Of a stretch of 64,000 bases of DNA, positions 3,876 through 53,549 are shown piece after piece. The DNA lies in the NCBI GenBank assembly GCA_030697165.1, contig JAUYQQ010000023.1, forward strand, positions 286,681 to 350,680, in the 5' to 3' direction. Every line of letters starts with the position of its first letter. Position 1 is the first letter of the stretch. Source of the stretch: Acidobacteriota bacterium. Lineage in GTDB: Bacteria > Acidobacteriota > Vicinamibacteria > Vicinamibacterales > UBA2999. A model generated the notes under the pieces. That model worked only from the letters and a program-made list of their open reading frames with translations. It searched no databases and had not been told where the DNA came from. The position numbers and the translations under genes are program-made.

Positions 3876-3896
3876 CGTCTCTGCTCCTGCTGCCCT

Positions 3897-3921: not shown

Positions 3922-3925
3922 CTGC

Positions 3926-8112: not shown

Positions 8113-8118
8113 GGGGGC

Positions 8119-9525: not shown

Positions 9526-9555
9526 CAGCCTCTCTCCTCCGTTAACGAACGACTT

Positions 9556-9580
9556 ATCCGGCTAAAGCCGGATGCTACAT
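9556..9580. repeat. REP-like hairpin ATCCGGCTAAAGCCGGATGCTACAT, copy 2
   Basis: Same sequence as 3897-3921 and the same position (DUF1592-DUF1552 gap). Confidence 0.8.
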
Positions 9581-9592
9581 TGCCCATGTGGT

Positions 9593-9610
9593 GTCCGCCT
9601 TCAGGCGGAC
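9593..9610. repeat. Second small hairpin GTCCGCC-TTCA-GGCGGAC
   Basis: Perfect 7-bp stem with a TTCA loop. It has the same architecture as GTCCGGC-TTCA-GCCGGAC at 19994-20011. Confidence 0.6.
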
Positions 9611-9615
9611 CGTGC

Positions 9616-12099: not shown

Positions 12100-13883
12100 C
12101 AACACGACACGCACTTGTTGTTGTTCTTGGAGCCGAGCTTCTCGAGCAGCTTCAGCGTTTCGGGATAGGGCTGGGTGCGCTGCACCGGGCCGTTGGCCAT
12201 GTCGGCCACCGTCTGGCCCTCGCGGTTCACCCTGGTAACGTCGGCGCCCTTGCTGACCAGGTAGAGAATCGATTCGTTGTCGCCACGCGCGGCCGCGTGG
12301 TGCAGCGCGGTATTGCCGTCGTGGTCCACCGCGTTGACGTCAGCACCGGCGACTTCGACCATGTACTTGATGCCGGGCAGGAAGCCCGCCGGCGAGTGGA
12401 TGTGCGAGTTGGCGGCGAAGCCTTCGCCGAAGCCGACGCCCGACGCGGCCTGCAGCGGCGGCACGCCGGGACCGCCGAGCGGCACCGGCGGCAGGCCCGA
12501 CACGTCGGCCGCCTGGCGCACTTCGCCGGTGTCGCCGAGCCGTTGCCGGCCGGCGGGACGCATCGTGGGAATGTTCGGGTCGGCGCCGTGCTCCATCAGC
12601 AGCGTCATCGCCGCGACGTCACCGGCAAAGGCGGCACGCCACATCGGCGTGGCGCCGATCTCGTCGACGCCGGCGAGATCGAAGTTGTATTCCGAGTACC
12701 AGACCTTCCGCGTGAGCCGCAGATTCGGATCGGCGCCCTTCTCGAGCAGCGCCTTCATGAACGACAGGTAGGTCGTCTGCTGCTGGTTGTGCGCCCGCGG
12801 CTGGGGATAGAGCGCGCGGGGGGCCCAGGTCACGTTCAGCGCGGCATAGAGCGGCGTCACGCCATTCTCGGCGGCCGCGTTCGGGTTGGCGCCGCGCTCG
12901 AGCAGCCACTGCGCCAGGTCGAACTGGCCGTTGATGGTGGCAATCAGCAGCGGGCTGGTCTTGTCGCCGGCCGACACCTGGTTGACGTCGGCACCGGCCG
13001 CCACGAGCGTCTTGACCGCGTCGGCATAGCCGCCGCGCGCCGCCAGCATCAGCGCGGTCACGCCGCCCTGGGTGCCGATCAACTCGTTATAGAAGAAGGG
13101 CCGGTCGATGCCGGGCCTGCCGCCGCCACCGCGACGACCGCCGCCACCGCCGGCACCTGGGGCCGGGGCCGGGGCATCCGCTGGCGGCGTGGTGCCGGCG
13201 GCCACGACTTGACCGGTGCGGCCCTGGCCGCCACCACCTGGCTGCGCGCCGCTGCCTGAGGCCTGCGCGAGGAACTCCTGTTCCTGGCTGCTGAGGCTCC
13301 CGACGTTGACCACCTTCGACGTCGCCTTGACGTCGGCACCGGCCTTGATCAGCGCCTGGATGGCCTCGACGCGGTTATTGGCGGTGGCAAACATCAGCGG
13401 CGTCTGCCCGAAGGTCTTCTCGCGCGCCTCGATTTCGGCGCCGTTTTCGACCAGCGTGGTGACCGCGGTGGCGTTGCCGGATCCGGCGGCAAGCATCAGC
13501 GCCGTGGTGCCGAGCGCGTTGCCGGCCTTGGCATCGGCGCCGCCGGTGATCAGGGCGGAAATCACGGCCGCGTGCCCGTGCTCGGCGGCCAGCAGCAGCG
13601 GCGTGTAGCCGCCCAGCCGCGTCGTGGCCTTGACGTTGGCGCCGGCGAACAGGAGCATCTGCGTCATCGCCGCATCGCCGTGTCGCGACGCCCAGTGCAG
13701 CGCGGTCATGCCGTCGCCCTGGGCCGCGTTCACGTCGGCGCCGCTCTTGATCAGCGTGCGCACGGCCTCGGTGTCGCGCTTCATCGCCGCATCGGCCACC
13801 GGCGCGGCCGCGGCGCCGAGCATCACCGACAGCGATAGCGCGAGGACAGCGACGAGCCCGAGACCCTGAATCACTTTGCGCAT
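12099..13883 (-). CDS. Secreted ankyrin-repeat protein (cassette 3, with Gly-rich insertion)
   Basis: ORF 12099..13913. Probable start is ATG 13883 (MRKVIQGLGLVAVLALSLSVMLGAAAAPVADA). Ankyrin signatures present. C-terminus KNNNKCVSC. The central linker is expanded to a QPGGGGQ...GAGGGGGRRGGGGRPG stretch. Confidence 0.85.
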   Translation of the reverse strand: MRKVIQGLGLVAVLALSLSVMLGAAAAPVADAAMKRDTEAVRTLIKSGADVNAAQGDGMTALHWASRHGDAAMTQMLLFAGANVKATTRLGGYTPLLLAAEHGHAAVISALITGGADAKAGNALGTTALMLAAGSGNATAVTTLVENGAEIEAREKTFGQTPLMFATANNRVEAIQALIKAGADVKATSKVVNVGSLSSQEQEFLAQASGSGAQPGGGGQGRTGQVVAAGTTPPADAPAPAPGAGGGGGRRGGGGRPGIDRPFFYNELIGTQGGVTALMLAARGGYADAVKTLVAAGADVNQVSAGDKTSPLLIATINGQFDLAQWLLERGANPNAAAENGVTPLYAALNVTWAPRALYPQPRAHNQQQTTYLSFMKALLEKGADPNLRLTRKVWYSEYNFDLAGVDEIGATPMWRAAFAGDVAAMTLLMEHGADPNIPTMRPAGRQRLGDTGEVRQAADVSGLPPVPLGGPGVPPLQAASGVGFGEGFAANSHIHSPAGFLPGIKYMVEVAGADVNAVDHDGNTALHHAAARGDNESILYLVSKGADVTRVNREGQTVADMANGPVQRTQPYPETLKLLEKLGSKNNNKCVSC

Positions 13884-13907
13884 ATGCGTAACCCTGTCAC
13901 TTGCCTT

Positions 13908-14007
13908 CACCACGAAGAGCCCGAAGACTACGAAGAACGCGAAGCCAAGTTTTCCAGAAGGACTCTTCGTGTCCTTCGAGATGGCCTTCGTGTCCTTCGT
14001 GGTTGCC
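13908..14007. repeat. CACGAAG-stutter palindromic intergenic element, copy 2
   Basis: caccacgaagagcccgaagactacgaagaacgcgaag ... cttcgtgtccttcgagatggccttcgtgtccttcgtggttgcc. Same position (ankyrin-DUF1552 gap) and same flanks (ccctgtcactt..., ...cttcgtggttgcctt) as copy 1. Confidence 0.8.
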
Positions 14008-14008
14008 T

Positions 14009-15421
14009 TTACTCCGCCGACGCGGTGGTCACCGGCACGGTGTTCAAGTCGAACCGGCCGGTGCTGTCGCCGAAGCTCTGCACGTCGGTCAGGCCGATGT
14101 CCTGCATCAGGGCCAGCATCGCGTTGGCCATGGGCGTGCCGTCGGCGGCCTTCAGGTGCAGGTTGCCGCGCAGCGCGCCGCCCCCCTTGCCGGCCAGGAA
14201 CAGCGGGCAGCGCTTGTGGTTGTGCACGTTCGAGTTGCCCATCGGCGACCCGTAGATCACGACCGTGTTGTCGAGCAGGTTCTTGTCGCCGTCCGGGGTG
14301 TTCTTCAGCTTGTTCAGGAAGTACGGAATCATGCTCACGTGATACCGGTTGATCTTGTTGAAATCGGTCACGCGGTCTTCGCGCTCGCCGTGGTGCGACG
14401 CGGGGTGGAACGCGGAGCGGACGCCGCTGTCGGGATAGACCCGCGCCGAGCCGTCGCGGCCCATCTTGAACGAGAACACGCGGGTCACGTCGGTGGCAAA
14501 CGCCAGCACCTGCAAGTCGAGCATCAGCTTGACGTGCTCCTCGAACGAATCGGGCACGCCGATCGGCGCCTCCGGCAGTTCGCGGACTTCGCCGGACGCG
14601 TTGTGCGCCTCGACGCGCTGGATGCGGCGCTCGACTTCACGCACTTCCTCGAGGAAGGCGCCCAGGCGGGCGCGGTCGCTGGTGCCCAGCTGCTTCTGCA
14701 ACCGCGCCACCTCTTCGCTCACCCAGTCGAGAATGCTCTTGTCGGTGCGACGAATGGCGGCGCGCTCGGCCGGCGTCGCGCCGACGCCGAACAACGAATC
14801 GAACGCCGCGCGCGGGTCGCGGATCATCGGCAGCGGGGTGTGCGGATCCGACCAGCTGATGGTGTCGGTGTAGGCGCAGCTGTAACCGTAGGCGCAGCCG
14901 CCCGACTGATCGACCGTCTCGATGCTCAACTGCATCGACGGGATGGCCGTCTCCTGGCCGAACTTGTGCGCGTAGAGCTGGTCGAGCGACGTGCCGGCCC
15001 GCACGTCGGAGCCCTGCGTCTTCTTGGGGTGCGACTGGGTCAGGAACACCGCGCTCGAGCGGAAGTGGTCGGCGCCGATCTCCTGCAGCGAAAACGCCTC
15101 GGCGTTGCGGACGTCGGTGTTGCTGACAATCGTCAGGTAGTCGCGGAACGGCTCGAGCGGCGACAGCGCGCTCGGGCTCAGGTCGAACGCGGTGCCGACC
15201 GCCGCCGGCGACCACATGTTCTTGGCGGCGCCGAAGACGGTCGCGCCGGCCGAGCCATGGACCATTTCAATGGCTGACAGCCGCACCTTGCCGGTGACCG
15301 CGGTCTTGGCGAGCAGCGTCTGGGCCGGCATCATTGCGTCGAGCAACGGCAGGGCCACGGTCACGCCAAGGCCGCGCAGAACGGTGCGGCGGGAGATGTG
15401 CTTCTTCGTGATAAATTCCAT
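14009..15421 (-). CDS. DUF1552 (HxxSHH) family protein, Tat-exported (cassette 3)
   Basis: 470 aa. MEFITKKHISRRTVLRGLGVTVALPLLDAM, FHPASHH, HNHKRCPLFLAG. Confidence 0.9.
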   Translation of the reverse strand: MEFITKKHISRRTVLRGLGVTVALPLLDAMMPAQTLLAKTAVTGKVRLSAIEMVHGSAGATVFGAAKNMWSPAAVGTAFDLSPSALSPLEPFRDYLTIVSNTDVRNAEAFSLQEIGADHFRSSAVFLTQSHPKKTQGSDVRAGTSLDQLYAHKFGQETAIPSMQLSIETVDQSGGCAYGYSCAYTDTISWSDPHTPLPMIRDPRAAFDSLFGVGATPAERAAIRRTDKSILDWVSEEVARLQKQLGTSDRARLGAFLEEVREVERRIQRVEAHNASGEVRELPEAPIGVPDSFEEHVKLMLDLQVLAFATDVTRVFSFKMGRDGSARVYPDSGVRSAFHPASHHGEREDRVTDFNKINRYHVSMIPYFLNKLKNTPDGDKNLLDNTVVIYGSPMGNSNVHNHKRCPLFLAGKGGGALRGNLHLKAADGTPMANAMLALMQDIGLTDVQSFGDSTGRFDLNTVPVTTASAE

Positions 15422-15426
15422 GGTTT

Positions 15427-17940
15427 CTATCTCTCCACTGTCGTCGTTTCGACTACGTCAGCCTTGCTCATCTGGAACGCCTGGCTCGTCACGATGCCCA
15501 TGACGAACGCCGAAAACTTGTGATTCTGTTTCGCGGCCTCGCGTGTGATCCGGCGAATCGCCGGCATGTCGAAATACTCGACCCGCCGGCCGAGGCTGTA
15601 GGTCAGCAGCCGCTCGGTGAAGCTCAGCACGAACATGTCCTGGTGCTTCAGCAGCGCCGTGCGCAGGCCCGCGGGCCCGGTCATCTTGGTGCCGTCGTAG
15701 AGGTCGCCAATCGGGTCGACCGGGGCGCCGTTGTCGCGAATGCGCCACCGGCCGGTGACGTCGAAGTTCTCGAGCGCCAGGCCGATCGGGTCGATCACCT
15801 TGTGGCACGAGGTGCACGCCGGGTTGGCGCGATGCTGCTCCATCCGCTGGCGGGTCGTCAGCTGGACGCCGGCATCTTCGCCCTTGGTTTCCTCGAGCAG
15901 CGGCACGTTGGGCGGCGGCGCCGGTGGCGGCGAGGCCAGCAGCACTTCCATCACCCACTTGCCGCGCAGCACCGGCGAAGTGCGATCGGCGACCGAGGTC
16001 AGCGCGAGAATGCTGCCGTGGCCGAGCAGCCCGCGGCGGTTCTCGTCGGCCAGCGTGACGCGGCGGAAGTCGGGGCCGTTCACGTTCGGGAGGCCGTAGT
16101 GCTTGGCGACGCGCTCGTTGACGAACGTGTAATCGGCCGTCAGCAGTTCGGTGATCGGGCGATCGTCGCGGACGATGCTGTCGAAGAACAGTTCGGTTTC
16201 GCGCTTGAGCGCCTGCGCCAGCCCGAAGTCGTAATACGGAAACAACAGCGCGTCGGGATTGAGCTTGTCGAGGTCCTGCAGCCGGAACCACTGCGACGCA
16301 AAGCGGGTGGACAGTGCCTCGGCCTTCGGGTCGGCCAGCATGCGCTTGACCTGCGCGGCGAGCACGCCCGGCGCGCGCAGCGTACCGTTGCCCGCCACCT
16401 TCAGTAACTGCGCGTCGGGGCCCATGCCCCACAGGAAGAACGACAGGCGCGTCGCCAGGTCGCGATCGGTCAGGCGGTAGTTCTGGCCCGGCCGCACCGT
16501 GGCCGGCGCTTCCTCGAGCCGAAACAGGAACTTCGGGCTGGCGAGCATCGCCTGCACCGCGAGCCGGATGCCCGACTCGAAGTCCCCCTCACTGCGCCCC
16601 TGCTGGTAGAACTTCTGCAGGCCGTCGTAGTCGGCGGCGGTCAGCGGCGCCCGGTACGCCTGGGTCGCGAGCGTACGGATAATCTGCGACGCGCACGCGG
16701 CCTCTTCGGCGGCGGCGGTCGGACGGCAGGTGAAGATCTTGCGGCGGCTCGGGGTGTCGGACACGCCGGTCACCTTGAACGGACCACCGACCGCGAACTC
16801 GCGCAGGTGCGGCAGCGTCGTGATCCCGAAGCCCGAGCCGATCTGGCTGTCGGCCAGCGTGTGCTCGATCGGCGGCATCAGGTCGTCGGGCACCGCGTCG
16901 AAGCGCTGCACGAACGCGGCCGCCAGTTGATGCGTCCCCGCCTTGATGTGGACCCTCGGCGTCGTCAGGTTCATCCCGTTGGGGTCCGACTCGCTCATGC
17001 GCGGGTTGATCTCGACCGCGGCGACGCGCTCGCCGTCAATCGACACCTCGAGGATCTCGCCCCGCACGGTGCTGCCAAACAGCTGCCCGGTCGGGATTGA
17101 ATGCAACTGCATGCGGAAGCTGTACTCGCCGTCGGCGGGGAACGTGTGCATGACGGCGATGCCGCCGCGCGTGCCGAACGGCGCGCCCTCGACGTGCCCC
17201 ATCTGCGAGCCGGTGCGCGGCACCTTGAAGGTGACCTCGGCGGCGCCGGTCTTGGGGTCGCCGACCGCGAGCGCGCTGATGCGGCTGGCGGCGCGCAGGT
17301 AGCCTTCCATCAAGGTCGCCGAGAAGCTCTGCGAGTCGGCGACGTTGTCGAAGCCGGCGCTGATCTGGTCGGGCGGCAGGAACGCGCTGACGTCGACGTC
17401 CAGGTCGAACATGCCGCGCACCGCGCGCGCATACTCCGCGCGGTTCAGGCGCTGGAACGGACGGCGGCCGGGATTGGGGCTGAGCGCGGCCGCCTGGTCG
17501 AGTCGCGTCTCCATCGAGGTGGCGAAGGCCGTCAGCACGGTGGCGTCGGGACGCCGCGAACCCGAGGGCGGCATCATCCCCGCGCGCAGCTTGCGGATGA
17601 TCTTCTCCGCGGTCTCCGCGACGTCAACGTCGTGGCCGACCTTCGACGCATCGAAGCCCTGCAGCGACAATCCCGCCGCGTTGTTCTTGTTGCGATCGTT
17701 ATGACAGCTGGCGCAGTACTGCTTGACGAGCGCGTTCTGCCCGCCCTCGCTCGCTGACTGATTCGCGAGCTTCGGCGAGGCCGGCTCGTGGCTCACCGCG
17801 ACCGCTGGCTCCGCCGGGGCAGCCTGTCTCGCCGTAGCGCGCGAAGCGAGCCCGGGCGCGGAGGCGGGCTGCTCCGCGTACACGCGGAATCCAAGCGCCG
17901 CGACCAACCCGAAACCGACCACCAACGAGAGTTTTTTCAT
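15427..17940 (-). CDS. Heme-c DUF1592-type multidomain protein (cassette 3, first gene of the array)
   Basis: 837 aa. Signal MKKLSLVVGFGLVAALGFRVYAEQ. Motifs QYCASCHND, GMMPPSG and NPACTSCHKVIDPIGLALENFD. Confidence 0.9.
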   Translation of the reverse strand: MKKLSLVVGFGLVAALGFRVYAEQPASAPGLASRATARQAAPAEPAVAVSHEPASPKLANQSASEGGQNALVKQYCASCHNDRNKNNAAGLSLQGFDASKVGHDVDVAETAEKIIRKLRAGMMPPSGSRRPDATVLTAFATSMETRLDQAAALSPNPGRRPFQRLNRAEYARAVRGMFDLDVDVSAFLPPDQISAGFDNVADSQSFSATLMEGYLRAASRISALAVGDPKTGAAEVTFKVPRTGSQMGHVEGAPFGTRGGIAVMHTFPADGEYSFRMQLHSIPTGQLFGSTVRGEILEVSIDGERVAAVEINPRMSESDPNGMNLTTPRVHIKAGTHQLAAAFVQRFDAVPDDLMPPIEHTLADSQIGSGFGITTLPHLREFAVGGPFKVTGVSDTPSRRKIFTCRPTAAAEEAACASQIIRTLATQAYRAPLTAADYDGLQKFYQQGRSEGDFESGIRLAVQAMLASPKFLFRLEEAPATVRPGQNYRLTDRDLATRLSFFLWGMGPDAQLLKVAGNGTLRAPGVLAAQVKRMLADPKAEALSTRFASQWFRLQDLDKLNPDALLFPYYDFGLAQALKRETELFFDSIVRDDRPITELLTADYTFVNERVAKHYGLPNVNGPDFRRVTLADENRRGLLGHGSILALTSVADRTSPVLRGKWVMEVLLASPPPAPPPNVPLLEETKGEDAGVQLTTRQRMEQHRANPACTSCHKVIDPIGLALENFDVTGRWRIRDNGAPVDPIGDLYDGTKMTGPAGLRTALLKHQDMFVLSFTERLLTYSLGRRVEYFDMPAIRRITREAAKQNHKFSAFVMGIVTSQAFQMSKADVVETTTVER

Positions 17941-18145: not shown

Positions 18146-19390
18146 ATGGGACCTCAAAAGACCATCTCGCGACGGAGGGTTTTGGCGGCCGGAACGGCCG
18201 GAATTGTCGGTGCGGCCCTCCCAATTGCTGGTCAAAGCGCGGATCAGGCGGCTCGTCCCAGGGTGCCGGCGGACCCGACCAAGGTCCAGGGGCCGCTCAG
18301 CACCGACGTCGGGGGACGATCCCCCTTCGAACAGCCCAAGCGCGTCTCGCTCGGCGCTCGCCGGACGTCGAGCCTGACGCCGCTGCAGGATCTCGACGGC
18401 ATCATCACCCCCTCGGACCTGCACTTCGAGCGGCATCACGGCGGCGTGCCCGCCATTGATCCCGCGCAGTACTCGCTGCTCGTTCACGGCATGGTCGACC
18501 GGCCGCTGGTGTTCACCCTCGCCGACCTGCGGCGCTTCCCCGGCCGCTCGATGATCCGCATGATGGAGTGCTCGGGCAACGGCGGGCGGGCCTATCGCCG
18601 CGAAGGCAACCAGACCGACGTCACGCCGCAACAGGTCGACGGCCTGACCAGCACCAGCGAATGGACCGGCGTGCCCCTCGCCACGCTGCTACGCGAAGCC
18701 GGCGCCTCGCCGAAAGCCAGGTGGCTGCTCGCCGAGGGCATGGACGCCGCCGTGATGACACGCAGCATCCCCATTGAGAAGGCGTACGACGATGCGCTGA
18801 TCGCGTACGGGCAGAACGGCGAGGCGCTGCGGCCCGAGCAGGGCTACCCGGTACGCCTGTTCCTGCCGGGTGTCGAGGGCAACGCCAGCATCAAGTGGCT
18901 GCGCCGCATCGAGGTTGCCGACCAGCCGTTCATGACCCGCGAGGAAACCTCGAAATACACCGACCCGCTGCCCGACGGCACGGCGCGCATCTTCAGCCTC
19001 GACATGGATGCCAAGTCGCTGATCACCGAACCGGCCTTTCCCGACCAGCTGACCGGACCGGGCTGGTGGGAAGTGCGCGGCCTGGCGTGGAGCGGCCGCG
19101 GCAAGATCGCAAAGGTCGACATCAGTGTCGATGGCGGCAAGACCTGGCGGCCGGCGACGCTCGACGAACCGGTGCTGCCCAAGTGCCACACGCGCTTCCG
19201 CTTCCCGTTCGAATGGAAGGGCGGCGAAACCACCTTATTGAGCCGGGCCACCGACGAGACCGGCTACACGCAACCCACCCTCGATGTGCTGATGGCCGCG
19301 CGCGGGCCGGCCACCGCGTATCACTTCAACCACATCCGCGGCTGGAAGGTGCTGGCCGATGGCGCGGTGAAGTTCGCGGGGGGCGCGTAA
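18146..19390 (+). CDS. sorA: Sulfite-oxidase-family molybdopterin subunit (SorA-like sulfite dehydrogenase)
   Basis: 414 aa. Tat leader ISRRRVLAAGTAGIVGAAL. MMECSGNGGR (Moco-ligand Cys context of the sulfite oxidase family). C-terminal Ig-like dimerisation region (WWEVRGLAWSGRGKIAKVDISVDGGKTW). Followed by an overlapping cytochrome c gene. Confidence 0.75.
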   Translation: MGPQKTISRRRVLAAGTAGIVGAALPIAGQSADQAARPRVPADPTKVQGPLSTDVGGRSPFEQPKRVSLGARRTSSLTPLQDLDGIITPSDLHFERHHGGVPAIDPAQYSLLVHGMVDRPLVFTLADLRRFPGRSMIRMMECSGNGGRAYRREGNQTDVTPQQVDGLTSTSEWTGVPLATLLREAGASPKARWLLAEGMDAAVMTRSIPIEKAYDDALIAYGQNGEALRPEQGYPVRLFLPGVEGNASIKWLRRIEVADQPFMTREETSKYTDPLPDGTARIFSLDMDAKSLITEPAFPDQLTGPGWWEVRGLAWSGRGKIAKVDISVDGGKTWRPATLDEPVLPKCHTRFRFPFEWKGGETTLLSRATDETGYTQPTLDVLMAARGPATAYHFNHIRGWKVLADGAVKFAGGA

Positions 19391-19992
19391 TGAGGATGGT
19401 TGTTGCTACGGCGCTGATCGCGGTTACGGCGTCCGCCTTCGCGTCCACCTTCGCACCCGATGATCAATCGAGTGCTTCGGCGAGACAGGCTCCTGCGGCG
19501 CCACGGTCGTACGGTCTCGGACGGGTCGCCACGGCTGACGAGATCAAGAAACTCGACATCGACGTCATGCCCGACGGCCGCGGTCTCCCCGCGGGCCGCG
19601 GGACGGTGGCCGAGGGCGCCACGATCTATGCGGCCAAGTGCCGTTCGTGTCACGGCGCGACCGGGGAAGGGGCTACGGCCGAACGCCTCGTCGGCCGCGA
19701 GTCGGGTCCCAACTTCAACTTCGCCATCGATCCGAAACTGGTGAAGACGGTCGGCAACTACTGGCCGTATGCGACCACGCTCTACGACTACACCTTCCGC
19801 GCGATGCCGTTCATGGAGCCCGGCACGCTGACGCCGAACGAGACGTACGCGCTCGTCGCCTACCTCCTCGCACTCAACAAGATCGTGCCAGACGACGCGG
19901 TGATGGACCAGGCGTCGCTGCCGAAGGTGGTGATGCCGGCGCGCGACAGGTTCGTGCCTGACAATCGAAAGGGCGGGAAGTTGGTGAAGTAG
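19390..19992 (+). CDS. sorB: c-type cytochrome subunit (SorB-like)
   Basis: In-frame ATG 19390 inside ORF 18895..19992 gives MRMVVATALIAVTASAFAS (signal) and a CRSCHG heme-c site. The start overlaps the sorA stop (TAATG). It is longer (200 aa) than the classical SorB. Confidence 0.65.
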   Translation: MRMVVATALIAVTASAFASTFAPDDQSSASARQAPAAPRSYGLGRVATADEIKKLDIDVMPDGRGLPAGRGTVAEGATIYAAKCRSCHGATGEGATAERLVGRESGPNFNFAIDPKLVKTVGNYWPYATTLYDYTFRAMPFMEPGTLTPNETYALVAYLLALNKIVPDDAVMDQASLPKVVMPARDRFVPDNRKGGKLVK

Positions 19993-19993
19993 A

Positions 19994-20011
19994 GTCCGGC
20001 TTCAGCCGGAC
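19994..20011 (+). terminator. Hairpin GTCCGGC-TTCA-GCCGGAC immediately after the sorB-like stop
   Basis: Perfect 7-bp stem starting 2 nt after TAG 19990-19992. No clear T-tract, so terminator function is tentative. Confidence 0.35.
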
Positions 20012-20049
20012 CCTGCTTCGGGTGCCAGTCCGCGGACGCGCCCCTGGCA

Positions 20050-20113
20050 CTGCACTCCGGCTAAAGCCGGAGGCTACCCTAGCGCTGCACTCCGGCTAAA
20101 AGCCGGAGGCTAC
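20050..20113. repeat. Two tandem REP-like copies CTGCACTCCGGCTAAA(A)GCCGGAGGCTAC
   Basis: Copies at 20050-20077 and 20085-20113 share the CCGGCTAAAGCCGG core with 3897 and 9556. The second copy overlaps the stop codon (20110-20112) of the convergent minus-strand gene. Confidence 0.8.
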
Positions 20114-21540
20114 TTCTGTTGCGGGCTCACCGGCTTGAGCACCGTGAGGTCCTGCGAGTCCACCGAGTATTCGGTGAACGGCTGGTACATCTCGTCCCAG
20201 CTCTGCTCGGACCAGTACACCGGAAGGTGCGGGCCCGGGTTCCACTTGTTGCGCACCGAGTTGTCGTAGACGCCAATGCCGGTGATCTTGCTGCCGGCGG
20301 GAATCTTGAGCGGCTCGGCCAGCTCGTAATTGAACTGCCAGTTGAAGTCGAACTTCGGCACGTTCAGGATCGTCTGCTCGCGGCCATCGGGATAGGTCAC
20401 GACCCACTTGAGGCTCTTGCCGCGCAGGTGCATGTGGGGCGACATCGCGTAGAGGGTGATGTCCTCGGTTACCGGCGTGATCCCGGTGAGCTTCCAGTTC
20501 TCCGCATACGGCGGGATGTTCGGCGTGGTCCGGCTGCGGCGGGTGCTGCTCGGGTCGGCGACGTACTCGGTCTCGCGGCCCTCGGCGCGATAGATCGACA
20601 GGCCGCCCTTGGTGGTCGCCAGCGGATCGCCCGCCTGGCGGATCAGCACTTCGTGGGTCACCGGCACCTTGTTGAACCAGATGCCCAGCTTGGTCCGATC
20701 CTTCTCGGGCTTGCCGGTCGGGTTGTAGTGCATCTGCCAGTTCACGTATTTGCCGGCGGGAATGCGCTTGCCGATGTTGGGGCGATGGATGTCGAGGCCG
20801 CGGCCCGGCACCCACGACAGCAGCTTGCTCGAGCCGGGCAGGCCGCTGTCGCTCGACGGCAATCCGCGCGAACCGCGATCGCCGATCACCTTGCCGTCGG
20901 GCCCGATGATGCGGCCGTTCTCGAGCGTCGTGCCTTCGGGAATGTCCACGAAGTAGATGCCGGCGTGGTGCAGCACCGCGCGGTTGCTCGGGTGCAACTC
21001 GACGACTTCCGCAAAGCGGTCCTCGGCCCACGGCACCTTCGAATAGAACATCTGCACGCCGACTTCGCCTTCGGCGGGAATCTCGAACTCGACCGGCATC
21101 TCGAGCACGGCGTCTGGCTCGCGTTCGCCGAACGTCCACCCGGTGGCGAACTTCGGCGGCGGCGGCAGGTCGGCGGCGTTGCCGCGCGCCGCGCCGCCAT
21201 CGACCCACGCGGCAATCGTGTCGATCTCCTTCTGCGACAGGCTGATGTCGTTGCGCATCGGCAGGCTCTGGGTCATGTCGGCGCCCCAGGGCGGCATCTC
21301 GCGCGACACGACCTTGGCCTTGATCGCCCTGGCCCACGGCCGCGCGTCCTCGTACGACATCAAGTTCATCGGCGCCACTTCGCCAGGCCGGTGGCAGTTG
21401 GCGCATTTCTTGTACATGATCGACGCGACATCCTTGGCGAACGTCGGGGCACCGGCGGATGCCGGGGCTGGAGTTTGAGCGGCGGCGCTGACTGACCCCA
21501 GTGCCGCCACGCCGATCACGACGAGAACCAGTCGTTTCAT
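20110..21540 (-). CDS. Cytochrome-c domain fused to a PHM/DBH-type (copper type II ascorbate-dependent-like) monooxygenase
   Basis: 476 aa. Signal MKRLVLVVIGVAALGSVSAAAQ. N-terminal KKCANCHRPGEVAPMNL...REMPPW heme-c module. Then LHHAG (aa 190-192), WQMHY (271), SPHMHLRGK (369/371) and WDEMY (451), in the same order and context as the CuH (HH, H) and CuM (HxH, M) ligands of peptidylglycine alpha-hydroxylating monooxygenase. Confidence 0.7.
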   Translation of the reverse strand: MKRLVLVVIGVAALGSVSAAAQTPAPASAGAPTFAKDVASIMYKKCANCHRPGEVAPMNLMSYEDARPWARAIKAKVVSREMPPWGADMTQSLPMRNDISLSQKEIDTIAAWVDGGAARGNAADLPPPPKFATGWTFGEREPDAVLEMPVEFEIPAEGEVGVQMFYSKVPWAEDRFAEVVELHPSNRAVLHHAGIYFVDIPEGTTLENGRIIGPDGKVIGDRGSRGLPSSDSGLPGSSKLLSWVPGRGLDIHRPNIGKRIPAGKYVNWQMHYNPTGKPEKDRTKLGIWFNKVPVTHEVLIRQAGDPLATTKGGLSIYRAEGRETEYVADPSSTRRSRTTPNIPPYAENWKLTGITPVTEDITLYAMSPHMHLRGKSLKWVVTYPDGREQTILNVPKFDFNWQFNYELAEPLKIPAGSKITGIGVYDNSVRNKWNPGPHLPVYWSEQSWDEMYQPFTEYSVDSQDLTVLKPVSPQQK

Positions 21541-21600
21541 ATCGCCCTCTCTACCTGAACATCTTCAGAGCCGCCGCGGCCCAACCGCGGGAATCTTAGC

Positions 21601-21996
21601 CTATTTGGGTGCGCCGGCAACGCAGGTCGCCACCGCCTCGGCCGCCGAGGTCACGTTGATGCGGCTCATGGGCGCGGCCGTGATGAACAGGCCGCGAATC
21701 ACCATGGTCCGGTCGCGATGCTGGGGAAAGCTGAACTCGCCCACGCCGAGTAAACGAAAGGCGTTCTTGCCCGCAGGCGGCTGCTTGGGCAACTCGGCCG
21801 CGGGGGCCTGGTTGGCCACGCTCGGCACCGGATCGGTCGCGGCGACGAGCACCCAATTGCCGGCACCTTGCTCGCGCAGGCAGCCGGTGACGCTGACAAT
21901 CTCCACCTTGTTCGCCGCCGGCGCTTGCCATGTGGCGTCGGCCTTCAGGCCGACCACTCCGGCGAGGGATAGCACGAGCATCAAAGACAGGGTCAT
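21601..21996 (-). CDS. Small secreted hypothetical protein
   Basis: 131 aa. MTLSLMLVLSLAGVVGLKADA signal. Sits directly upstream of, and co-directional with, the PHM-like gene. No recognisable domain. Confidence 0.55.
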   Translation of the reverse strand: MTLSLMLVLSLAGVVGLKADATWQAPAANKVEIVSVTGCLREQGAGNWVLVAATDPVPSVANQAPAAELPKQPPAGKNAFRLLGVGEFSFPQHRDRTMVIRGLFITAAPMSRINVTSAAEAVATCVAGAPK

Positions 21997-23149
21997 GACG
22001 GGTCGTATGATACCCGACGTGCCCCTTCGACTCGAGGGACTTCGCTCGCGAAGTCCCTCTCGCTCAGGACGAGTAGCCCTGGCGCTCCTGGCAATCCTTG
22101 CGGGAACGCCAGCGCTGCTCGCTCACGAAGCGGAACGCACCCGCGTCCTTCTGACTTTTACCGGCGATGAACGCTTCGTGCTCGAGGTCGCCAACGATCC
22201 CCTGTGGATGCTGCTGCGCCTCGAAACGTTCGCCGGCGGCACCGTGCCGCCCAATCCCACCGCGGCCGAACGCGATGCCCGTCTCGCGCAACTCACCGCC
22301 GTCTTCGCCGACCGCATCGTTTTGTTCGTGGACGGGCATGAGGTCCGCGCCGAGTCGGTGGTCTACCAGCCACCACCCACGTCGCCGCCGGATGCGCTGG
22401 CGCGCTTCACGCTGACGGGTCGCATGCCGCGCGGCGCCTCGACGCTGCGCTGGCTCTACGGAATCGTCGCCGATCCGTATCCGCTGGAGATTCGCCAGGC
22501 CGACGGATCGTCCACGGTCGAGTGGATCACCGGCACCAACTGGAGCGGCGTGATCGACCTGACGCGCAGCTTTCCGCAGCCCACCCGCTGGCAGATCGCG
22601 CGCCAGTATCTCGCGCTGGGCTACACCCACATCCTGCCGAAAGGGCTGGACCACATCCTGTTCGTCCTCGGCCTGTTCCTGCTCAGCCCGCGGGTGAAGA
22701 CGCTGCTGCTGCAAGTGACGGCCTTCACCCTGGCCCACTCGATCACGCTGGGCCTCGCCATCTACGGGCTCGTCTCGCTGCCGTCACGCCTCGTCGAGCC
22801 GCTGATCGCGCTGTCGATCGCGTATGTCGCGATCGAAAATCTCGTCACGCGGGCGCTCACGCCGTGGCGGCTGGCCCTGGTGTTCGCGTTCGGCCTGCTG
22901 CACGGGCTGGGCTTCGCCGGCGTGCTGCGCGAGCTGGGATTGCCGCGCGGCGAGTTCCTCACGGGGCTACTGGCGTTCAATGTGGGCGTCGAAGGCGGAC
23001 AGCTGACGGTGATCGCGATCGCGATGCTGCTGGTGTGGCCATTCGTAAATCGAGGCTGGTATCGCCACCGCGTGGTGCTCCCGGCATCGCTCGCGATTGG
23101 TGCGATGGGAATCTATTGGACGATTGCTCGCGTGCTCAGTAGCCAGTAG
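21995..23149 (+). CDS. HupE/UreJ-family metal permease with extra N-terminal periplasmic domain
   Basis: Real start is probably ATG 21995 or 22007 inside ORF 21605..23149 (MTGRMIPD...VALALLAILAGTPALLAHE signal). C-terminal half has LGYTHILPKGLDHILFVLGLFLL, FTLAHSITLGLA, IALSIAYVAIENL and FGLLHGLGFAGVL, typical of the HupE/UreJ-2 family. Confidence 0.75.
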   Translation: MTGRMIPDVPLRLEGLRSRSPSRSGRVALALLAILAGTPALLAHEAERTRVLLTFTGDERFVLEVANDPLWMLLRLETFAGGTVPPNPTAAERDARLAQLTAVFADRIVLFVDGHEVRAESVVYQPPPTSPPDALARFTLTGRMPRGASTLRWLYGIVADPYPLEIRQADGSSTVEWITGTNWSGVIDLTRSFPQPTRWQIARQYLALGYTHILPKGLDHILFVLGLFLLSPRVKTLLLQVTAFTLAHSITLGLAIYGLVSLPSRLVEPLIALSIAYVAIENLVTRALTPWRLALVFAFGLLHGLGFAGVLRELGLPRGEFLTGLLAFNVGVEGGQLTVIAIAMLLVWPFVNRGWYRHRVVLPASLAIGAMGIYWTIARVLSSQ

Positions 23150-23276
23150 CCAGTAGCCAGTAGCCAGTAGCCAGTAGCCAGTAGACAGTAGCCAGTAGCC
23201 AGAAGAGCTCGTGTCTCTCTGGCATCTGGCTACTGGCATCTGGCTACTGGCATCTGGCTACTGGCATCTGGCTACT
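23137..23276. repeat. Heptamer-stutter palindrome: about 8 x CAGTAGC, then 4 x CTGGCATCTGGCTA
   Basis: The left arm of tandem CAGTAGC units begins inside the last codons of the HupE gene (stop TAG 23147-23149). The right arm contains GCTACTG (the reverse complement) alternating with GCATCTG, and overlaps the stop (23272-23274) of the convergent NHL gene. Confidence 0.85.
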
Positions 23277-24342
23277 TCTGGAATTTCTGAATGCGCTGGC
23301 CGTAGGTGTCGGCGGCGTAGACACCGCCCTTCGAGTCGACCACGATGCCGTGGACCCAGTCGAACTCGCCGGGGCCGAGGCCCTGCTTACCCCAGGTCGC
23401 GACGAGTTTGCCGTCCTTCAACGACAGCTTGTGGACGCGCTCTCCTGCGTGGTCGGCGATGTATGCGAAGCCATCATCACCCGTGCGCGAGATGGCAATG
23501 TCCCACGGGTACCAGCCCTCGACCTTGATCTCGCGCAGGTAGTTCAGGTCCTTGTCGTATACCTGCAGCCGGTGCCCCTCGCGATCGATGATGTACATGT
23601 TGTCTTGCGCATCAAGCGCGAGCTTGTGGGGCAGCACCCACTCGCCGGGACCGTTGCCCTTGTCGGCCGGGCCGCCCGCGCCCTTGCCCACTTGCTTGAT
23701 GAACTTGCCGGTCTTGTCGAACATCGCCACGCGGTTGTTGCCATAGCCGTCGGTGACGACGATGTTGCCGTTTCTGAGGACAGCGACGCCAGACGGCAGG
23801 TCGAAGTGCGTGGCGTCGTTGCCCTTCTCCATCGTGGTCCCGAGCTGGAGCAGGACCTTGTCCATCTTGGGGCTGAGCTTCACCACGCGGTGGGCGTCGC
23901 GCTCGATCATGTAGACGTTGCCTTCCCAGTCCACGGCACCGGAGTGCTGCCAGTTGGGGTCGAGCTTCTTGCCGTTGAGATCGATATCGCCGCCGGCCAT
24001 CACCAGGTTGCCGGCCGGGTCGAACACCATGATCGGCTTGGCGCCGCGGTTGAACACGTAGATGCGATCCTGCGCGTCGATCGCGACGCCGGAGATGCCG
24101 GGTTGATTGGTGGGCGCCTGTCCGGGCGGCCGAGCGCCAGTCTGTCCAGTCGCACGACGCGCGGCCGCTTGCGCTTCGCGCTCCGCCGGCGGCGGCGGCG
24201 CGGTCTTCAGGCCGAAGAATTCGCCGGGCGGCAGTTTCGGCCAGTCCGGCACGAGCTTGTAGCCGCCATCCCCTTGCGCTTGCGCCGTCGCGGCGGCGAG
24301 CAAAATCACGACCACGAATGAAGAGACCAGTGTCCGTCGCAT
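23272..24342 (-). CDS. Secreted NHL-repeat beta-propeller, peptidyl-alpha-hydroxyglycine alpha-amidating lyase (PAL)-like
   Basis: ORF 23272..24447. Probable start is ATG 24342 (MRRTLVSSFVVVILLAAATAQAQG). Motifs RIYVFNRGAKPIMVFD, NIVVTDGYGNNRVAMFD, PGEWVLPHKLALDAQDNMYIIDREGHRLQVYD and GGVYAADTYGQRIQKF are NHL blades with the FxRG and PGxFxxPHxLAL motifs I associate with PAL. Confidence 0.7.
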   Translation of the reverse strand: MRRTLVSSFVVVILLAAATAQAQGDGGYKLVPDWPKLPPGEFFGLKTAPPPPAEREAQAAARRATGQTGARPPGQAPTNQPGISGVAIDAQDRIYVFNRGAKPIMVFDPAGNLVMAGGDIDLNGKKLDPNWQHSGAVDWEGNVYMIERDAHRVVKLSPKMDKVLLQLGTTMEKGNDATHFDLPSGVAVLRNGNIVVTDGYGNNRVAMFDKTGKFIKQVGKGAGGPADKGNGPGEWVLPHKLALDAQDNMYIIDREGHRLQVYDKDLNYLREIKVEGWYPWDIAISRTGDDGFAYIADHAGERVHKLSLKDGKLVATWGKQGLGPGEFDWVHGIVVDSKGGVYAADTYGQRIQKFQK

Positions 24343-24370
24343 ATACTCTCCGGCGGTGAGGATACACCAC

Positions 24371-24958
24371 ATGAGACGACCGGTGATTCTGGGCGCGCTG
24401 GCCGTGGTGCTGGCGTGCGGCGCGGCCGAAGCGCAAGAGGTACCCAAGGGGCAGATGCCGACGCTCGGCCGCCCGACGCAGACTGGCGACGAGGTGCCAC
24501 TGCTCGACTTCGACGCGTACTTTGTCGGTAAGTGGACGTGGGAGTGGTCGATGCCCGAGACGGCGCTCGCGCCCGGCGGGGACTACACCGGCACCACGGT
24601 CTACCGGAAAGTGGACGGCCGCTTCTACGAAGCCGTTACGGAAGGCCAGGGCCCCGCGGGCGCGTTCACGGTTCGCGAGCTGATTGCGTATCACGCCGAG
24701 AACAAGACCATTGCCCGGCAGGTGACCGATTCACGTGGGCATGGACGATTGGAGCTTGGGCCCGTCGGTGGGGACCTGGGTGGGATCTACAACCTGCACT
24801 ACGAGAGCGCGCCGTTCACCTACGGCGGCAAGACGATCCGCCTGAGGAACACCCTGCGCCTGCTGTCGCCGCTCGCCTACCGGGTGGCGACCAGCATCTC
24901 GGTGGATGGGGGCCCCTTCACCAACCTGGGGAACCCGTGGTGGCGCAAGAGCCCTTAA
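24371..24958 (+). CDS. Secreted hypothetical protein (possibly DUF1579-like)
   Basis: ORF 24356..24958. Likely start is MRRPVILGALAVVLACGAAEAQE at 24371. YFVGKWTWEWSMPE is reminiscent of DUF1579, but the assignment is weak. Confidence 0.55.
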   Translation: MRRPVILGALAVVLACGAAEAQEVPKGQMPTLGRPTQTGDEVPLLDFDAYFVGKWTWEWSMPETALAPGGDYTGTTVYRKVDGRFYEAVTEGQGPAGAFTVRELIAYHAENKTIARQVTDSRGHGRLELGPVGGDLGGIYNLHYESAPFTYGGKTIRLRNTLRLLSPLAYRVATSISVDGGPFTNLGNPWWRKSP

Positions 24959-24969
24959 CAGGAGACGAA

Positions 24970-24999
24970 GAGATCAGGAGAAACTACTCTCCTGATCTC
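24970..24999. terminator. Bidirectional hairpin GAGATCAGGAGA-aactac-TCTCCTGATCTC between convergent genes
   Basis: Perfect 12-bp stem in the 52-nt gap between 24958 (+ gene end) and 25011 (- gene end). Confidence 0.55.
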
Positions 25000-25010
25000 C
25001 TTAACTCTTG

Positions 25011-25442
25011 TTACTTCTTGAGTTCGATCTTGATCTGCTTCAAGCTCTCGAGCTTGGCCTCGAGTTCGGTGGTGCCGACGGGAAACTTGTTGTACTTCAG
25101 CATGTAGGCGACGATGTCGGCCTTCTCGGCTGGACTCACGCCGGACGCGCCACTCGGCGGCATCGAAATGCGGATGCGCTCGAACAGGTCGCCTACCGAC
25201 AGATCGGTCCAGTTGCCCATGAACTCGGGCCCCGCCAGGGCCGGCGCAAAACCATCACCGGTGAGATCGGCAGCGTGACACTCGGCGCACGCCGTCGTGT
25301 AAACGCCCAACCCGCGCTCGGCCTGGGCGTCGGTGTAGACACCGTCCCACACCGTGCGAGCGGCCTGCGCGCCGAGCGAGGACTGCGTGAGCGCCGAGGT
25401 CCAGGCAGCCGCCAAGACCAGGAAAGCAATGCGAAGCTTCAT
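25011..25442 (-). CDS. Small periplasmic c-type cytochrome
   Basis: ORF 25011..25451. Likely start is MKLRIAFLVLAAAWTSALT (25442). CAECH heme site and an ISMPPSG motif resembling the MMPPSG of the DUF1592 proteins. Confidence 0.8.
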   Translation of the reverse strand: MKLRIAFLVLAAAWTSALTQSSLGAQAARTVWDGVYTDAQAERGLGVYTTACAECHAADLTGDGFAPALAGPEFMGNWTDLSVGDLFERIRISMPPSGASGVSPAEKADIVAYMLKYNKFPVGTTELEAKLESLKQIKIELKK

Positions 25443-25454
25443 GGTGACCATTTT

Positions 25455-25492
25455 ACAGGAGATCAGGAGTTCAGGAACTCCTTAACTCTTTG
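25455..25492. repeat. Second copy of the ACAGGAGATCAGGAG...CTCCTTAACTCTTTG element
   Basis: acaggagatcaggagttcaggaactccttaactctttg is related to 24958-25010 (acaggagacgaagagatcaggaga...ctccttaactcttg). The two copies bracket the cytochrome c gene in direct orientation. Confidence 0.65.
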
Positions 25493-26396
25493 ACTCCTGT
25501 TCCTCTGCCCAGAGCCACGCGGCACCCCTGACGCCACTCGCGTCACCATGCGCGGCGCGGACGAGCCGGGTGGCGACGCGATCGGAGAAGACAAACGGGG
25601 ACCACCGCGCCGGCACGCTCGCATACAGCCGCTCGATGTTCGACAGCCCGCCGCCCAGCACGATCACATCCGGGTCGAGCACGTTGATGACGCTGGCGAT
25701 GGCGCGGGCGAAGCGGGATTCGTAACGGGCCAGGGCGGCCTCGGCGCGCGGCTCGCCGGCCGCCGCGCGCATGGCCACCTCTGCCGCAGTCACTCGCTCG
25801 CCACCGCCGGCCGCGTAGTCGCGGACGAGCGCCGGTCCCGACAGGAACGTCTCGATGCACCCCGCGCGTCCGCAGTAGCACGCCGGCCCCGGCCGCTCGT
25901 CGTTGCCGGGCGCAGGCAGGGGGTTGTGTCCCCACTCGCCGGCAATGGCATTGGCGCCGGCGATCACGCGGCCGTGGACGACCAGCCCGCCACCGGTGCC
26001 GGTGCCGATGATCACGCCGAACACCACGGCGGCGCCCGCGGCCGCGCCGTCGGTCGCTTCGGACAGCGCGAAGCAATTGGCGTCGTTGGCCAGCCGCACC
26101 GAGCGCGCCAGCACGCGCGACAGGTCGTCGGCCAGCGGCTGGCCGATTAACCAGGTCGAGTTGGCGTTCTTGATCAAGCCAGTGGCCGGCGACACCGCGC
26201 CCGGAATGCCGACGCCGACCGTGCCGCGGCCGCCGGCGCCGGCTTCGAGCGCCGAGACGAGGCCGGCGATGGCGCGCACCGAGTCGTCGTAGCTGTCGCG
26301 CGGCGCGGGGATCCGGCGGCGCTGCAGCTCGCGGCCGTCGGCGGCGAGTGCCACGCCCTCAATCTTCGTCCCGCCCAGATCGATGCCGATGCGCAT
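25482..26396 (-). CDS. ROK-family sugar kinase (NagK/Mak-like)
   Basis: ORF 25482..26762, but homology starts at ATG 26396: MRIGIDLGGTKIEG..., PRDSYD, VRLANDANCFALSEA, GVIIGTGTGGG, GEWGH, CYCGRAGCIETFLSG. Colinear with E. coli NagK as I remember it. Confidence 0.85.
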   Translation of the reverse strand: MRIGIDLGGTKIEGVALAADGRELQRRRIPAPRDSYDDSVRAIAGLVSALEAGAGGRGTVGVGIPGAVSPATGLIKNANSTWLIGQPLADDLSRVLARSVRLANDANCFALSEATDGAAAGAAVVFGVIIGTGTGGGLVVHGRVIAGANAIAGEWGHNPLPAPGNDERPGPACYCGRAGCIETFLSGPALVRDYAAGGGERVTAAEVAMRAAAGEPRAEAALARYESRFARAIASVINVLDPDVIVLGGGLSNIERLYASVPARWSPFVFSDRVATRLVRAAHGDASGVRGAAWLWAEEQESKS

Positions 26397-52141: not shown

Positions 52142-52152
52142 GGCGTGGTCTC

Positions 52153-52728: not shown

Positions 52729-52730
52729 CG

Positions 52731-53540: not shown

Positions 53541-53549
53541 CAGCGTCGA

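Follow-up and report, generated by a model that had tools for sequence, protein, structure and literature searches.

A haem-fused PHM-like protein and a PAL-like propeller in a conserved gene block of Vicinamibacterales: candidate enzymes for a two-step oxidative N-dealkylation

Organisation of the locus

In animals, the copper enzyme PHM (peptidylglycine alpha-hydroxylating monooxygenase) and the zinc lyase PAL (the alpha-amidating lyase that acts on peptidyl-alpha-hydroxyglycine) work together in the amidation of peptide hormones. The 64,000-nucleotide stretch of DNA considered here, hereafter called the window, originates from an Acidobacteriota bacterium (contig JAUYQQ010000023.1 of assembly GCA_030697165.1) and harbours, at 20.1-25.0 kb, a block of five genes, namely those for a PHM-like protein, a small protein (small131), a HupE-like protein, a PAL-like NHL protein and a DUF1579 protein, with a signal sequence at the N-terminus of every product. 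From their sequences, the four core products, i.e., the PHM-like, small131, NHL and DUF1579 proteins, are predicted to be exported, and the HupE-like product is predicted to reside in the membrane. The DNA of the window is high-GC (~67%) and its closest relatives are metagenome-assembled genomes (MAGs) of the Vicinamibacterales (Acidobacteriota), the PHM-like gene being 94-95% identical in two related loci (L001 and L046).

The PHM-like gene (20110..21540, minus strand) encodes a secreted fusion of 476 aa between a cytochrome c and a PHM/DBH-like copper monooxygenase. This open reading frame (ORF) is the second gene of a small131/PHM-like transcription unit. Its mono-haem cytochrome c domain spans residues ~30-125 (21166..21453, minus strand), with the CANCH motif at residues 46-50 (nt 21391-21405), and the two-domain copper core, as delimited by alignment to rat PHM, spans residues ~140-462 (20155..21123, minus strand). 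Directly upstream, small131 (21601..21996, minus strand) encodes a secreted protein of 131 aa with two conserved Cys. The HupE/UreJ_2-family membrane protein (PF13795, E=3.5e-48) is encoded on the plus strand at ~21995..23149, with an uncertain start codon, and this gene is divergent from the small131 gene and convergent with the NHL gene. The latter (23272..24342, minus strand) encodes a secreted six-bladed NHL propeller of 356 aa, recognised as PAL-like by phmmer, BLASTP and an AlphaFold2 (AF2) model. In the window, it is divergent from the gene for the secreted DUF1579-family protein of ~200 aa (PF07617; 24356..24958, plus strand), the true start of which may be the ATG at 24371. Just beyond lies a gene for a stand-alone mono-haem cytochrome c (25011..25451, minus strand; Cytochrome_CBB3, E=1.6e-9).

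An earlier reading of the letters, hereafter the sequence-only reading, had described the PHM-like and NHL genes as a split pair flanking a permease, with a small secreted protein also in between and a stand-alone cytochrome c just beyond. All these genes were found where it placed them, but as the HupE-like gene that separates the PHM-like gene from the NHL gene runs in the other direction, the pair spans two transcription units and not one operon.

A cytochrome c-fused copper protein of the PHM/DBH type

Assignment of the 476-aa protein to the PHM/DBH-type copper monooxygenases had originally relied on four motifs, namely LHHAG, WQMHY, SPHMHLRGK and WDEMY, which do occur in that order at residues 190, 268, 367 and 448, respectively. 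With this single sequence, a search of the PDB returned nothing, and PHM and DBH were reached only with a family profile; built from 50 diverse family members, the latter retrieved rat PHM (E=7e-10) and human DBH (E=2.6e-9), well past anything that chance would give. In the alignment of the profile to rat PHM, VHH corresponds to H107/H108, LQVHY to Q170/H172, PHMHLRGK to H242/H244, NWQ to Q272 and DEM to M314. From the HMMER alignment, the putative CuH ligands of the window protein are H191, H192 and H271 (H107, H108 and H172 in rat PHM) and the putative CuM ligands are H369, H371 and M451 (H242, H244 and M314), with Q269 and Q402 corresponding to Q170 and Q272. The putative ligands and both Gln are invariant or at least 90% conserved across the 50 diverse members.

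Structural comparison agrees with the motif alignment. Using the AF2 model of the 476-aa protein (pLDDT 72) as a query, PHM and DBH structures account for each of the first 31 Foldseek matches (E between 4e-10 and 3e-7), with best E-values of 4e-10 for PHM and 1.9e-9 for DBH, the next fold being PNGase at 3.7e-5; the target-normalised TM-score ranges from 0.33 to 0.56 overall, i.e., 0.46-0.56 for PHM and 0.33-0.37 for DBH. The modelled catalytic core is a two-domain beta-sandwich of the PHM/DBH type. Taken together, the profile match, the aligned ligand motifs and the fold bear out the initial assignment and support the view that the protein is a true PHM/DBH homologue with its catalytic residues in place.

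Ahead of the copper core, CANCH at residue 46 marks a fused N-terminal CxxCH haem domain. Since none of C46, C49, H50 and M82 varies among 50 diverse members of the superfamily, a mono-haem c domain precedes the copper core, and M82, as part of an EMPPW motif, is the probable axial Met of the haem. This domain had escaped mention in the sequence-only reading and alters the view of electron supply, as the enzyme would have a redox input of its own. Against Pfam, the protein scores 24.4 bits for Cytochrome_CBB3 (E=3.8e-5) and 20.4 bits for Cu2_monoox_C (E=3.8e-4), both under the gathering score. Some relatives do pass PF03712, namely P0241 (33 bits) and the proteins of L117 and L124 (24.2 bits). 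NCBIfam has no model for either the PHM-like or the NHL protein, and the sole match there is a sub-threshold one to ScyF for the NHL protein.

A PAL-like propeller with a conserved active site

A phmmer search with the NHL protein retrieves rat PAL (3fvz) with E=6e-26, the match covering 232 residues. By BLASTP, identity to the rat PAL catalytic core (PALcc) amounts to 29% over 305 aa (E=2e-32), for a rat sequence whose first 69 residues are provisional and whose remainder agrees with printed alignments. Pfam NHL is matched at E=1.6e-25, and the protein is a six-bladed NHL beta-propeller; the profile searches that had been proposed as a check were thus clear for this half of the pair, but not for the monooxygenase, where Cu2_monoox_C stayed under threshold and PF01082 gave no match. 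For the AF2 model (pLDDT 86), the top PDB match is 3fvz, at E=1.1e-23 and with 316 columns aligned. Close behind among the structural matches come generic NHL domains, for instance those of Thin and TRIM71, and the fold alone is therefore not decisive; judged from the aligned residues, the active site is what sets the protein apart from generic NHL domains.

Six residues of the NHL protein correspond to the PAL site, i.e., R99 (rat R533), H133 (H585), Y200 (Y654), H239 (H690), R254 (R706) and H331 (H786), as read from the printed 3fvz alignment with a single offset of 491. The rat residue numbers are consistent both with this single offset and with the feature list of ExiPAL, an active bacterial enzyme. 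In ExiPAL and rat PAL, the defining features are three Zn-binding His, a catalytic Tyr and Arg, and a Ca site made of two main-chain carbonyls and an Asp, the ExiPAL residues being H95/H210/H309, Y178/R225 and D310, respectively (PMC10900485). In the alignment, the three Zn histidines H133, H239 and H331 of the NHL protein sit on blades 2, 4 and 6, and the catalytic Tyr and Arg are represented by Y200 and R254, both aligned and invariant. The FNRG motif read by the sequence-only analysis is present at residue 97, as is PGEWVLPHKLALDAQDNMYIIDREGHRLQVYD at residue 232 of the 356 aa; R99 of FNRG, also invariant, stands opposite R533 of the rat FHRG, the Arg that binds the substrate carboxylate, in BLASTP against the rat sequence with the provisional first 69 residues.

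These six residues (R99, H133, Y200, H239, R254 and H331) are invariant in 34 orthologues, and the set is complete in 57 of the 76 NHL ORFs from related loci. Among the remaining 19, nine are truncated fragments keeping every site that they cover, the others being unaligned pieces or divergent paralogues. The protein departs from rat PAL by an overall identity of 27-29%, by a Trp in place of Met784, by an extra insert of ~35 aa with a helix after a DWP motif in the AF2 model, and by the lack of the Ca-site Asp considered below. With 3fvz as top match and with the Zn histidines, Tyr, Arg and FHRG Arg kept, the PAL-type identity that had been proposed was upheld, and the sequence supports a true PAL homologue with its catalytic residues in place.

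Conservation of the block in Vicinamibacterales

Conservation was assessed with one genome per species, which yielded 80 loci, all of this acidobacterial lineage by sequence; linkage was counted in the 58 species-level loci with at least 4.5 kb upstream. Co-localisation of both genes beyond the window genome, which had been set as a check, was observed in 51/58 loci, where the upstream 9 kb of the PHM-like gene include a PAL-like NHL gene scoring 250 bits or more. The partners follow, with small131 in 47/58 loci and the HupE-like and DUF1579 genes in 46/58 each, even as PHM-like identity drops to ~69%. Only the closest relatives retain the outer flanks, i.e., at one end the genes for the SorA-like Mo enzyme, cytochrome c and DUF1592/DUF1552, and at the other end those for cytochrome c and ROK. 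Since both flanks are replaced while the block stays, the five-gene block outlives its surroundings.

In one locus (L054), a gene for a transporter of the major facilitator superfamily (MFS; 6478-7776) lies between the DUF1579 and NHL genes, inside their operon. A gap of similar size at the MFS position occurs in four further loci (L061, L063, L071 and L073), gene content having been scanned in L054 only. The presence of an MFS transporter in the DUF1579/NHL operon hints at a small-molecule product. A GNAT acetyltransferase and an ECF-type sigma factor are also encoded upstream in L054.

Some MAGs in the set (L007, L012, L014, L016, L028 and L055) are titled Acidimicrobiia, Cyanobacteriota or Bifidobacterium, with PHM-like genes 72-86% identical to that of the window and with Vicinamibacterales synteny. 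These records are probably mislabelled or mis-binned.

Partner genes

Small131 adjoins the PHM-like gene in most related loci, and in at least 10 metagenomic loci its domain forms, by fusion, the C-terminal part of the PHM-like protein itself (L104, L107, L108, L111, L113, L115, L116, L117, L136 and L141; ORFs of 580-706 aa), as detected with a clean hidden Markov model (HMM) at E from 1e-29 to 1e-8. The fusion joins two families that both lack annotation. The protein displays two conserved Cys and no metal motif. It has no Pfam match, neither it nor DUF1579 has an informative Pfam relative, and searches of the PDB with single sequences and profiles of both returned no significant match. Small131 was considered as an amidation substrate and rejected, its C-termini being variable and not Gly-ending and the protein occurring as a fused domain.

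For DUF1579, the window protein scores 21.9 bits against PF07617, and homologues reach 26.3-26.5 bits, above the gathering score. The gene lies in one operon with that for the NHL protein in no fewer than 19 loci of the clade, and in outgroup metagenome loci (L098, L099, L100, L106 and L108) its operon partner is the PHM-like gene, along with small131. DUF1579 hence links both enzyme halves, sharing an operon with the PHM-like gene in outgroups and with the NHL gene in the clade.

The HupE-like protein belongs to the HupE/UreJ_2 family (PF13795, 163.7 bits for a cut-off of 24.5). Within the clade of 70% identity or more, its gene keeps its place between those for NHL and small131 and runs on the strand opposite to them. 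A conserved periplasmic N-terminal domain of ~160 aa precedes the HupE_UreJ_2 membrane domain, and an invariant His44 is the first residue past the predicted signal-peptide cleavage site (LLA|HEAER). The permease had been proposed to supply the enzymes with metal. HupE/UreJ proteins are inner-membrane importers bringing metal into the cytoplasm; as the enzymes here are exported, such a role is doubtful and finds no support in the present data.

The same proposal had electrons delivered by cytochromes. This may apply to the haem c domain that the monooxygenase carries itself, but needs revision for the stand-alone cytochrome c, whose gene is found beside the DUF1579 gene only in loci where the PHM-like gene is at least ~80% identical. 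Weaker cytochrome c matches (37-49% identity) lie elsewhere in a few other loci and are probably generic. The stand-alone cytochrome c is a neighbour outside the conserved core, and its proposed electron role is unsupported.

Between the convergent HupE-like and NHL genes, Tandem Repeats Finder (TRF) revealed two complementary tandem-repeat arrays at 23137..23276, i.e., (CAGTAGC)x9.4 and (CTGGCATCTGGCTA)x4.1, the first beginning within the final codons of the HupE-like gene. Both arrays together fold into a hairpin of ~140 nt with a minimum free energy of -101 kcal/mol (z=-12.5), which is probably a bidirectional terminator. Nowhere else in the window does the repeat occur; among related loci, L016 has an exact copy of 21 nt at the equivalent intergenic position and L012 has one at a different site. 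A promoter and terminator scan of 19900-25600 gave background level only, and an Rfam scan of the whole window returned one tRNA only and no riboswitch that could hint at a substrate.

The wider superfamily

An exhaustive HMMER search retrieved 15,689 clusters (50% identity) at E<=1e-3, including 2,110 at E<=1e-30. Many of these cytochrome c/PHM-like proteins exhibit an N-terminal AhpC/TSA redoxin and some exhibit EF-hands, hydrolases or peptidase M56. In 150 representatives, the succession of CxxCH, ~142 aa, HH, HxH and ~80 aa to [DE]EM is near-universal. Around PHM-like genes 35-52% identical to that of the window, PAL-like and HupE-like neighbours are essentially absent, and what recurs instead is small131, fused or adjacent, often with DUF1579. 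The evolutionary core is thus composed of cytochrome c/PHM-like protein, small131 and DUF1579, the PAL-like lyase and the HupE-like gene being additions in the Vicinamibacterales clade.

PAL-like neighbours were nonetheless encountered in two distant loci, namely L124, with an operon consisting of genes for a PAL-like protein (HYHRH signature), an unknown protein, a cytochrome c-PQQ propeller and a PHM-like protein, and L167, where a second PAL-like gene lies 1.2 kb from a gene for a double PHM-like protein. As independent support for a PHM-PAL association they were rejected, being too few. Near distant PHM-like paralogues, cytochrome c-fused PQQ beta-propeller dehydrogenases were observed in L083/L084 (5524-7320), L124 (1952-3766), L166 (10378-12291) and L168 (10459-12321). 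A malate synthase gene near paralogue P0466 was examined as a possible glyoxylate sink and discarded, as it lies ~4 kb off, on the other strand, and does not recur. In a Blastocatellia genome (L165, 2934-8604), four same-strand genes in a row encode proteins of 409-480 aa, at least three of which are cytochrome c/PHM-like and make up a tandem array; in one member, L165d, neither the HH nor the HxH motif is present.

A possible two-step pathway

This Vicinamibacterales cluster displays homology to PHM and PAL, catalytic residues that are conserved, products predicted to be exported and genes that stay linked, and from these it appears nearly, if not quite, an even chance that its two enzymes are coupled in a two-step oxidative N-dealkylation analogous to the reaction of PAM. 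In the first step, electrons would enter the 476-aa protein via its own fused c-type haem, which would replace ascorbate, and would then reach CuH and CuM; at CuM, O2 would be activated and a C-H bond beside an amide nitrogen hydroxylated. In the second step, the PAL-like zinc propeller, with its Zn/Tyr/Arg site, would split the resulting carbinolamide into an amide and glyoxylate or a related aldehyde. Small131 and DUF1579 would be accessories of the monooxygenase, possibly in substrate binding or delivery. As for the substrate, small molecules of the N-acylglycine type (hippurate-like, lipo-amino acids) seem more likely than ribosomal peptides because of the MFS transporter in the operon and of the absence from the block of a Gly-terminated precursor ORF and of any machinery for ribosomally synthesised peptides with post-translational modifications (RiPPs). 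The lyase, by keeping the carboxylate-binding Arg, argues for intermediates of the alpha-hydroxyglycine type. A more precise version, i.e., a haem-driven, ascorbate-independent PHM+PAL system for the periplasmic alpha-amidation or N-dealkylation of glycine-terminated amides in soil Acidobacteria, is to be regarded as tentative and rather doubtful. The periplasmic two-step pathway put forward by the sequence-only reading finds partial support, in homology, residues, linkage and export signals, but not in the peptidylglycine anchors nor for the roles given to the permease and the stand-alone cytochrome.

Several observations weigh against such a coupled pathway. At the level of the monooxygenase, Pfam scores fall short of the gathering thresholds, with 20.4 bits for a cut-off of 23 with PF03712 and no match with PF01082. 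The residues R240, N316 and Y318, the anchors of the substrate glycine carboxylate in rat PHM, align to S367, Q453 and F455 and are not conserved; the monooxygenase therefore does not imply a peptidylglycine substrate and argues against a simple transfer of PHM specificity. On sequence, the 476-aa protein is a PHM/DBH-type catalyst with nothing in it that specifies peptidylglycine. In the lyase, the position of the PAL Ca-site Asp (rat D787; ExiPAL D310), right after H331, is occupied by Gly332, and the calcium site may differ from that of PAL. At the level of the genes, the two enzymes are encoded on the same strand, yet in separate transcription units with an opposite-strand gene in between, and they share neither one polypeptide nor one transcript, as would be expected of PAM. 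The block has no conserved gene for the processing of glyoxylate or amides. Since a single bacterial order provides all the linkage evidence, common descent has a part in it. Finally, PAL-like neighbours are rare in the wider superfamily, with two cases (L124 and L167) in ~80 distant loci, a frequency that does not clearly exceed the background; the monooxygenase consequently does not generally need PAL.

Alternatively, the two enzymes could be independent neighbours, where the cytochrome c/PHM-like protein with small131 and DUF1579 would be a general periplasmic C-H hydroxylase acting on a non-glycine substrate, and the NHL protein a zinc lyase or hydrolase with a different substrate. We consider this possible rather than probable. 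It agrees with the absence of a PAL-like neighbour for most members of the superfamily, where the widely conserved partners are small131, fused or adjacent, and DUF1579, as well as with the missing PHM glycine anchors and the separate transcription units. The cytochrome c/PQQ propeller dehydrogenases and hydrolases beside distant paralogues (L083/L084, L124, L166 and L168) further suggest a catabolism that hydroxylates and then dehydrogenates. Mere neighbourhood, however, hardly accounts for a block kept in 88% of species-level genomes (51/58 for the PAL-like gene) despite the turnover of its flanks, or for a DUF1579 gene that switches between the PHM-like and NHL operons. In the NHL protein, moreover, none of the PAL catalytic residues is missing, the Arg that binds the carboxylate included, and PHM-type hydroxylation is the only known source of PAL substrates.

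Two further explanations are less probable. True C-terminal amidation, in which the pair would mature a glycine-extended secreted peptide (a RiPP-like signal or an antimicrobial) or a periplasmic protein as PAM does, is unlikely. In its favour, each of the two PAM activities has a counterpart whose catalytic residues are intact, all the components are predicted to be exported, and bacterial PAL homologues take peptidyl-alpha-hydroxyglycine with broad specificity (PMC9155641). Nevertheless, the block contains no conserved short ORF ending with Gly, the C-termini of small131 are variable and not Gly, neither a protease nor an exporter of the type found in RiPP clusters is present, and the peptidylglycine anchors of PHM are not conserved; the MFS transporter in the L054 operon, with a similar gap in four loci, suggests instead the uptake of a small product. 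More improbable still, the PHM-like module would be a periplasmic copper/haem redox protein, involved in peroxide or superoxide handling or in copper homeostasis, with the HupE-like permease as its real partner. Such a role fits with the HupE-like gene always being adjacent in the clade, the invariant N-terminal His of its product, and the AhpC/TSA-type redoxin fusions that are common in the superfamily, besides some EF-hand, peptidase and hydrolase fusions. Thioredoxin folds like those of ResA and CcmG act in cytochrome c maturation, and as AhpC/TSA-type thioredoxin folds can also serve this process, the fusion need not mean peroxide chemistry. Besides, the two copper sites are completely conserved over >15,000 clusters, together with the Met ligand and the Q170/Q272 network, as expected of an O2-activating catalyst of the PHM/DBH type.

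Relation to known systems and significance

To our knowledge, PAM is treated as the sole enzyme making C-terminal peptide amides and as a eukaryotic invention. Respective to bifunctional PAM of animals and green algae, the coupled system favoured here would have in common that both catalytic modules are encoded together and operate in an oxidising extracytoplasmic compartment, whereas the window modules correspond to separate genes in separate transcription units, would be haem-fed, lack any transmembrane or cytosolic routing domain, and come with extra partners, namely small131, DUF1579 and the HupE-like protein. Compared with PHM and DBH, the monooxygenase has the same two-domain beta-sandwich (Foldseek E ~1e-10), the His-His...His of CuH, the His-x-His...Met of CuM and the Gln170/Gln272 network, but identity is 13-15% and Pfam scores remain under the gathering score. 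Unlike PHM, it is a bacterial protein with a Sec-type signal, accompanied by small131 and DUF1579 and devoid of the R240, N316 and Y318 anchors, and with an N-terminal c-type haem fused to it, it presumably draws electrons from a periplasmic redox chain instead of ascorbate. With PAL, the lyase shares the six-bladed NHL propeller, the three Zn His on blades 2/4/6, the catalytic Tyr and Arg, and the Arg of FHRG. It differs from ExiPAL in being encoded in a conserved cluster with a PHM-like gene.

The window monooxygenase also falls in a bacterial superfamily labelled "cytochrome c / thiol-disulfide isomerase" (AhpC/TSA, cytochrome c and Cu2_monoox_C-like domains), of which it is a member with the CxxCH...HH...HxH...EM arrangement; its clade differs by the lack of a redoxin fusion and is the sole lineage found here with stable PAL-like and HupE-like linkage. 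Stand-alone bacterial PAL homologues with demonstrated PAL activity exist, and their natural functions have been called unclear (PMC10900485). As biocatalysts, bacterial PALs have been paired with rat PHM, which requires eukaryotic expression (PMC10900485, PMC9155641), and active bacterial PAL homologues are also known from a patent. A review of PAM covers eukaryotic sequences only (PMC6529398). In the literature covered, which was incomplete, no description was found of a bacterial PHM-type partner, a bacterial PHM+PAL system, a cytochrome-fused copper monooxygenase or the cytochrome c/PHM-like superfamily, in line with the sequence-only reading, which knew of no characterised bacterial system of this kind.

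What appears new here is the occurrence in bacteria of PHM-type and PAL-type catalysts that are unfused, apparently haem-fed and associated with three extra conserved partners, which the sequences suggest as a well-supported hypothesis rather than a demonstrated pathway. A conserved cluster of PAL with a PHM-type protein would provide bacterial PAL homologues with a natural context, and a candidate bacterial PHM that is ascorbate-independent and expressible in bacteria would be useful for peptide amidation. The cluster also offers a first handle on a very large and unstudied family of periplasmic copper/haem monooxygenases of soil bacteria and on its partner domains, small131 and DUF1579. Were the haem-driven pathway real, it would represent the first natural bacterial counterpart, and possibly an evolutionary relative, of eukaryotic PAM, and would give a purpose to bacterial PAL homologues as well as a first function to a superfamily of >15,000 cytochrome c/PHM-like clusters.

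Other features of the window

Ahead of the block, the minus strand at 2472-17940 carries three tandem gene pairs, each encoding a large PSCyt/PSD-domain protein (DUF1592/1588/1587/1585/1595) and then a DUF1552 (HXXSHH) protein, i.e., 3926-7021 with 2472-3902, 9616-12339 with 8119-9561, and 15427-17940 with 14009-15421; a cytochrome c domain is present in two of the three large proteins. Next to them, on the plus strand (18146-19992), a sulfite-oxidase-type molybdoenzyme (Oxidored_molyb and Mo-co_dimer) followed by a cytochrome c constitutes a SorAB-like pair, which is convergent with the PHM-like gene and kept beside the cluster only in the closest relatives. Further downstream, a tRNA gene is located at 37103-37176. 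From ~46795 to 60000, a run of minus-strand genes includes one for a phage tail tape-measure-like protein of 1291 aa (46795-50670; PhageMin_Tail), which suggests that the region is a prophage or a phage remnant.

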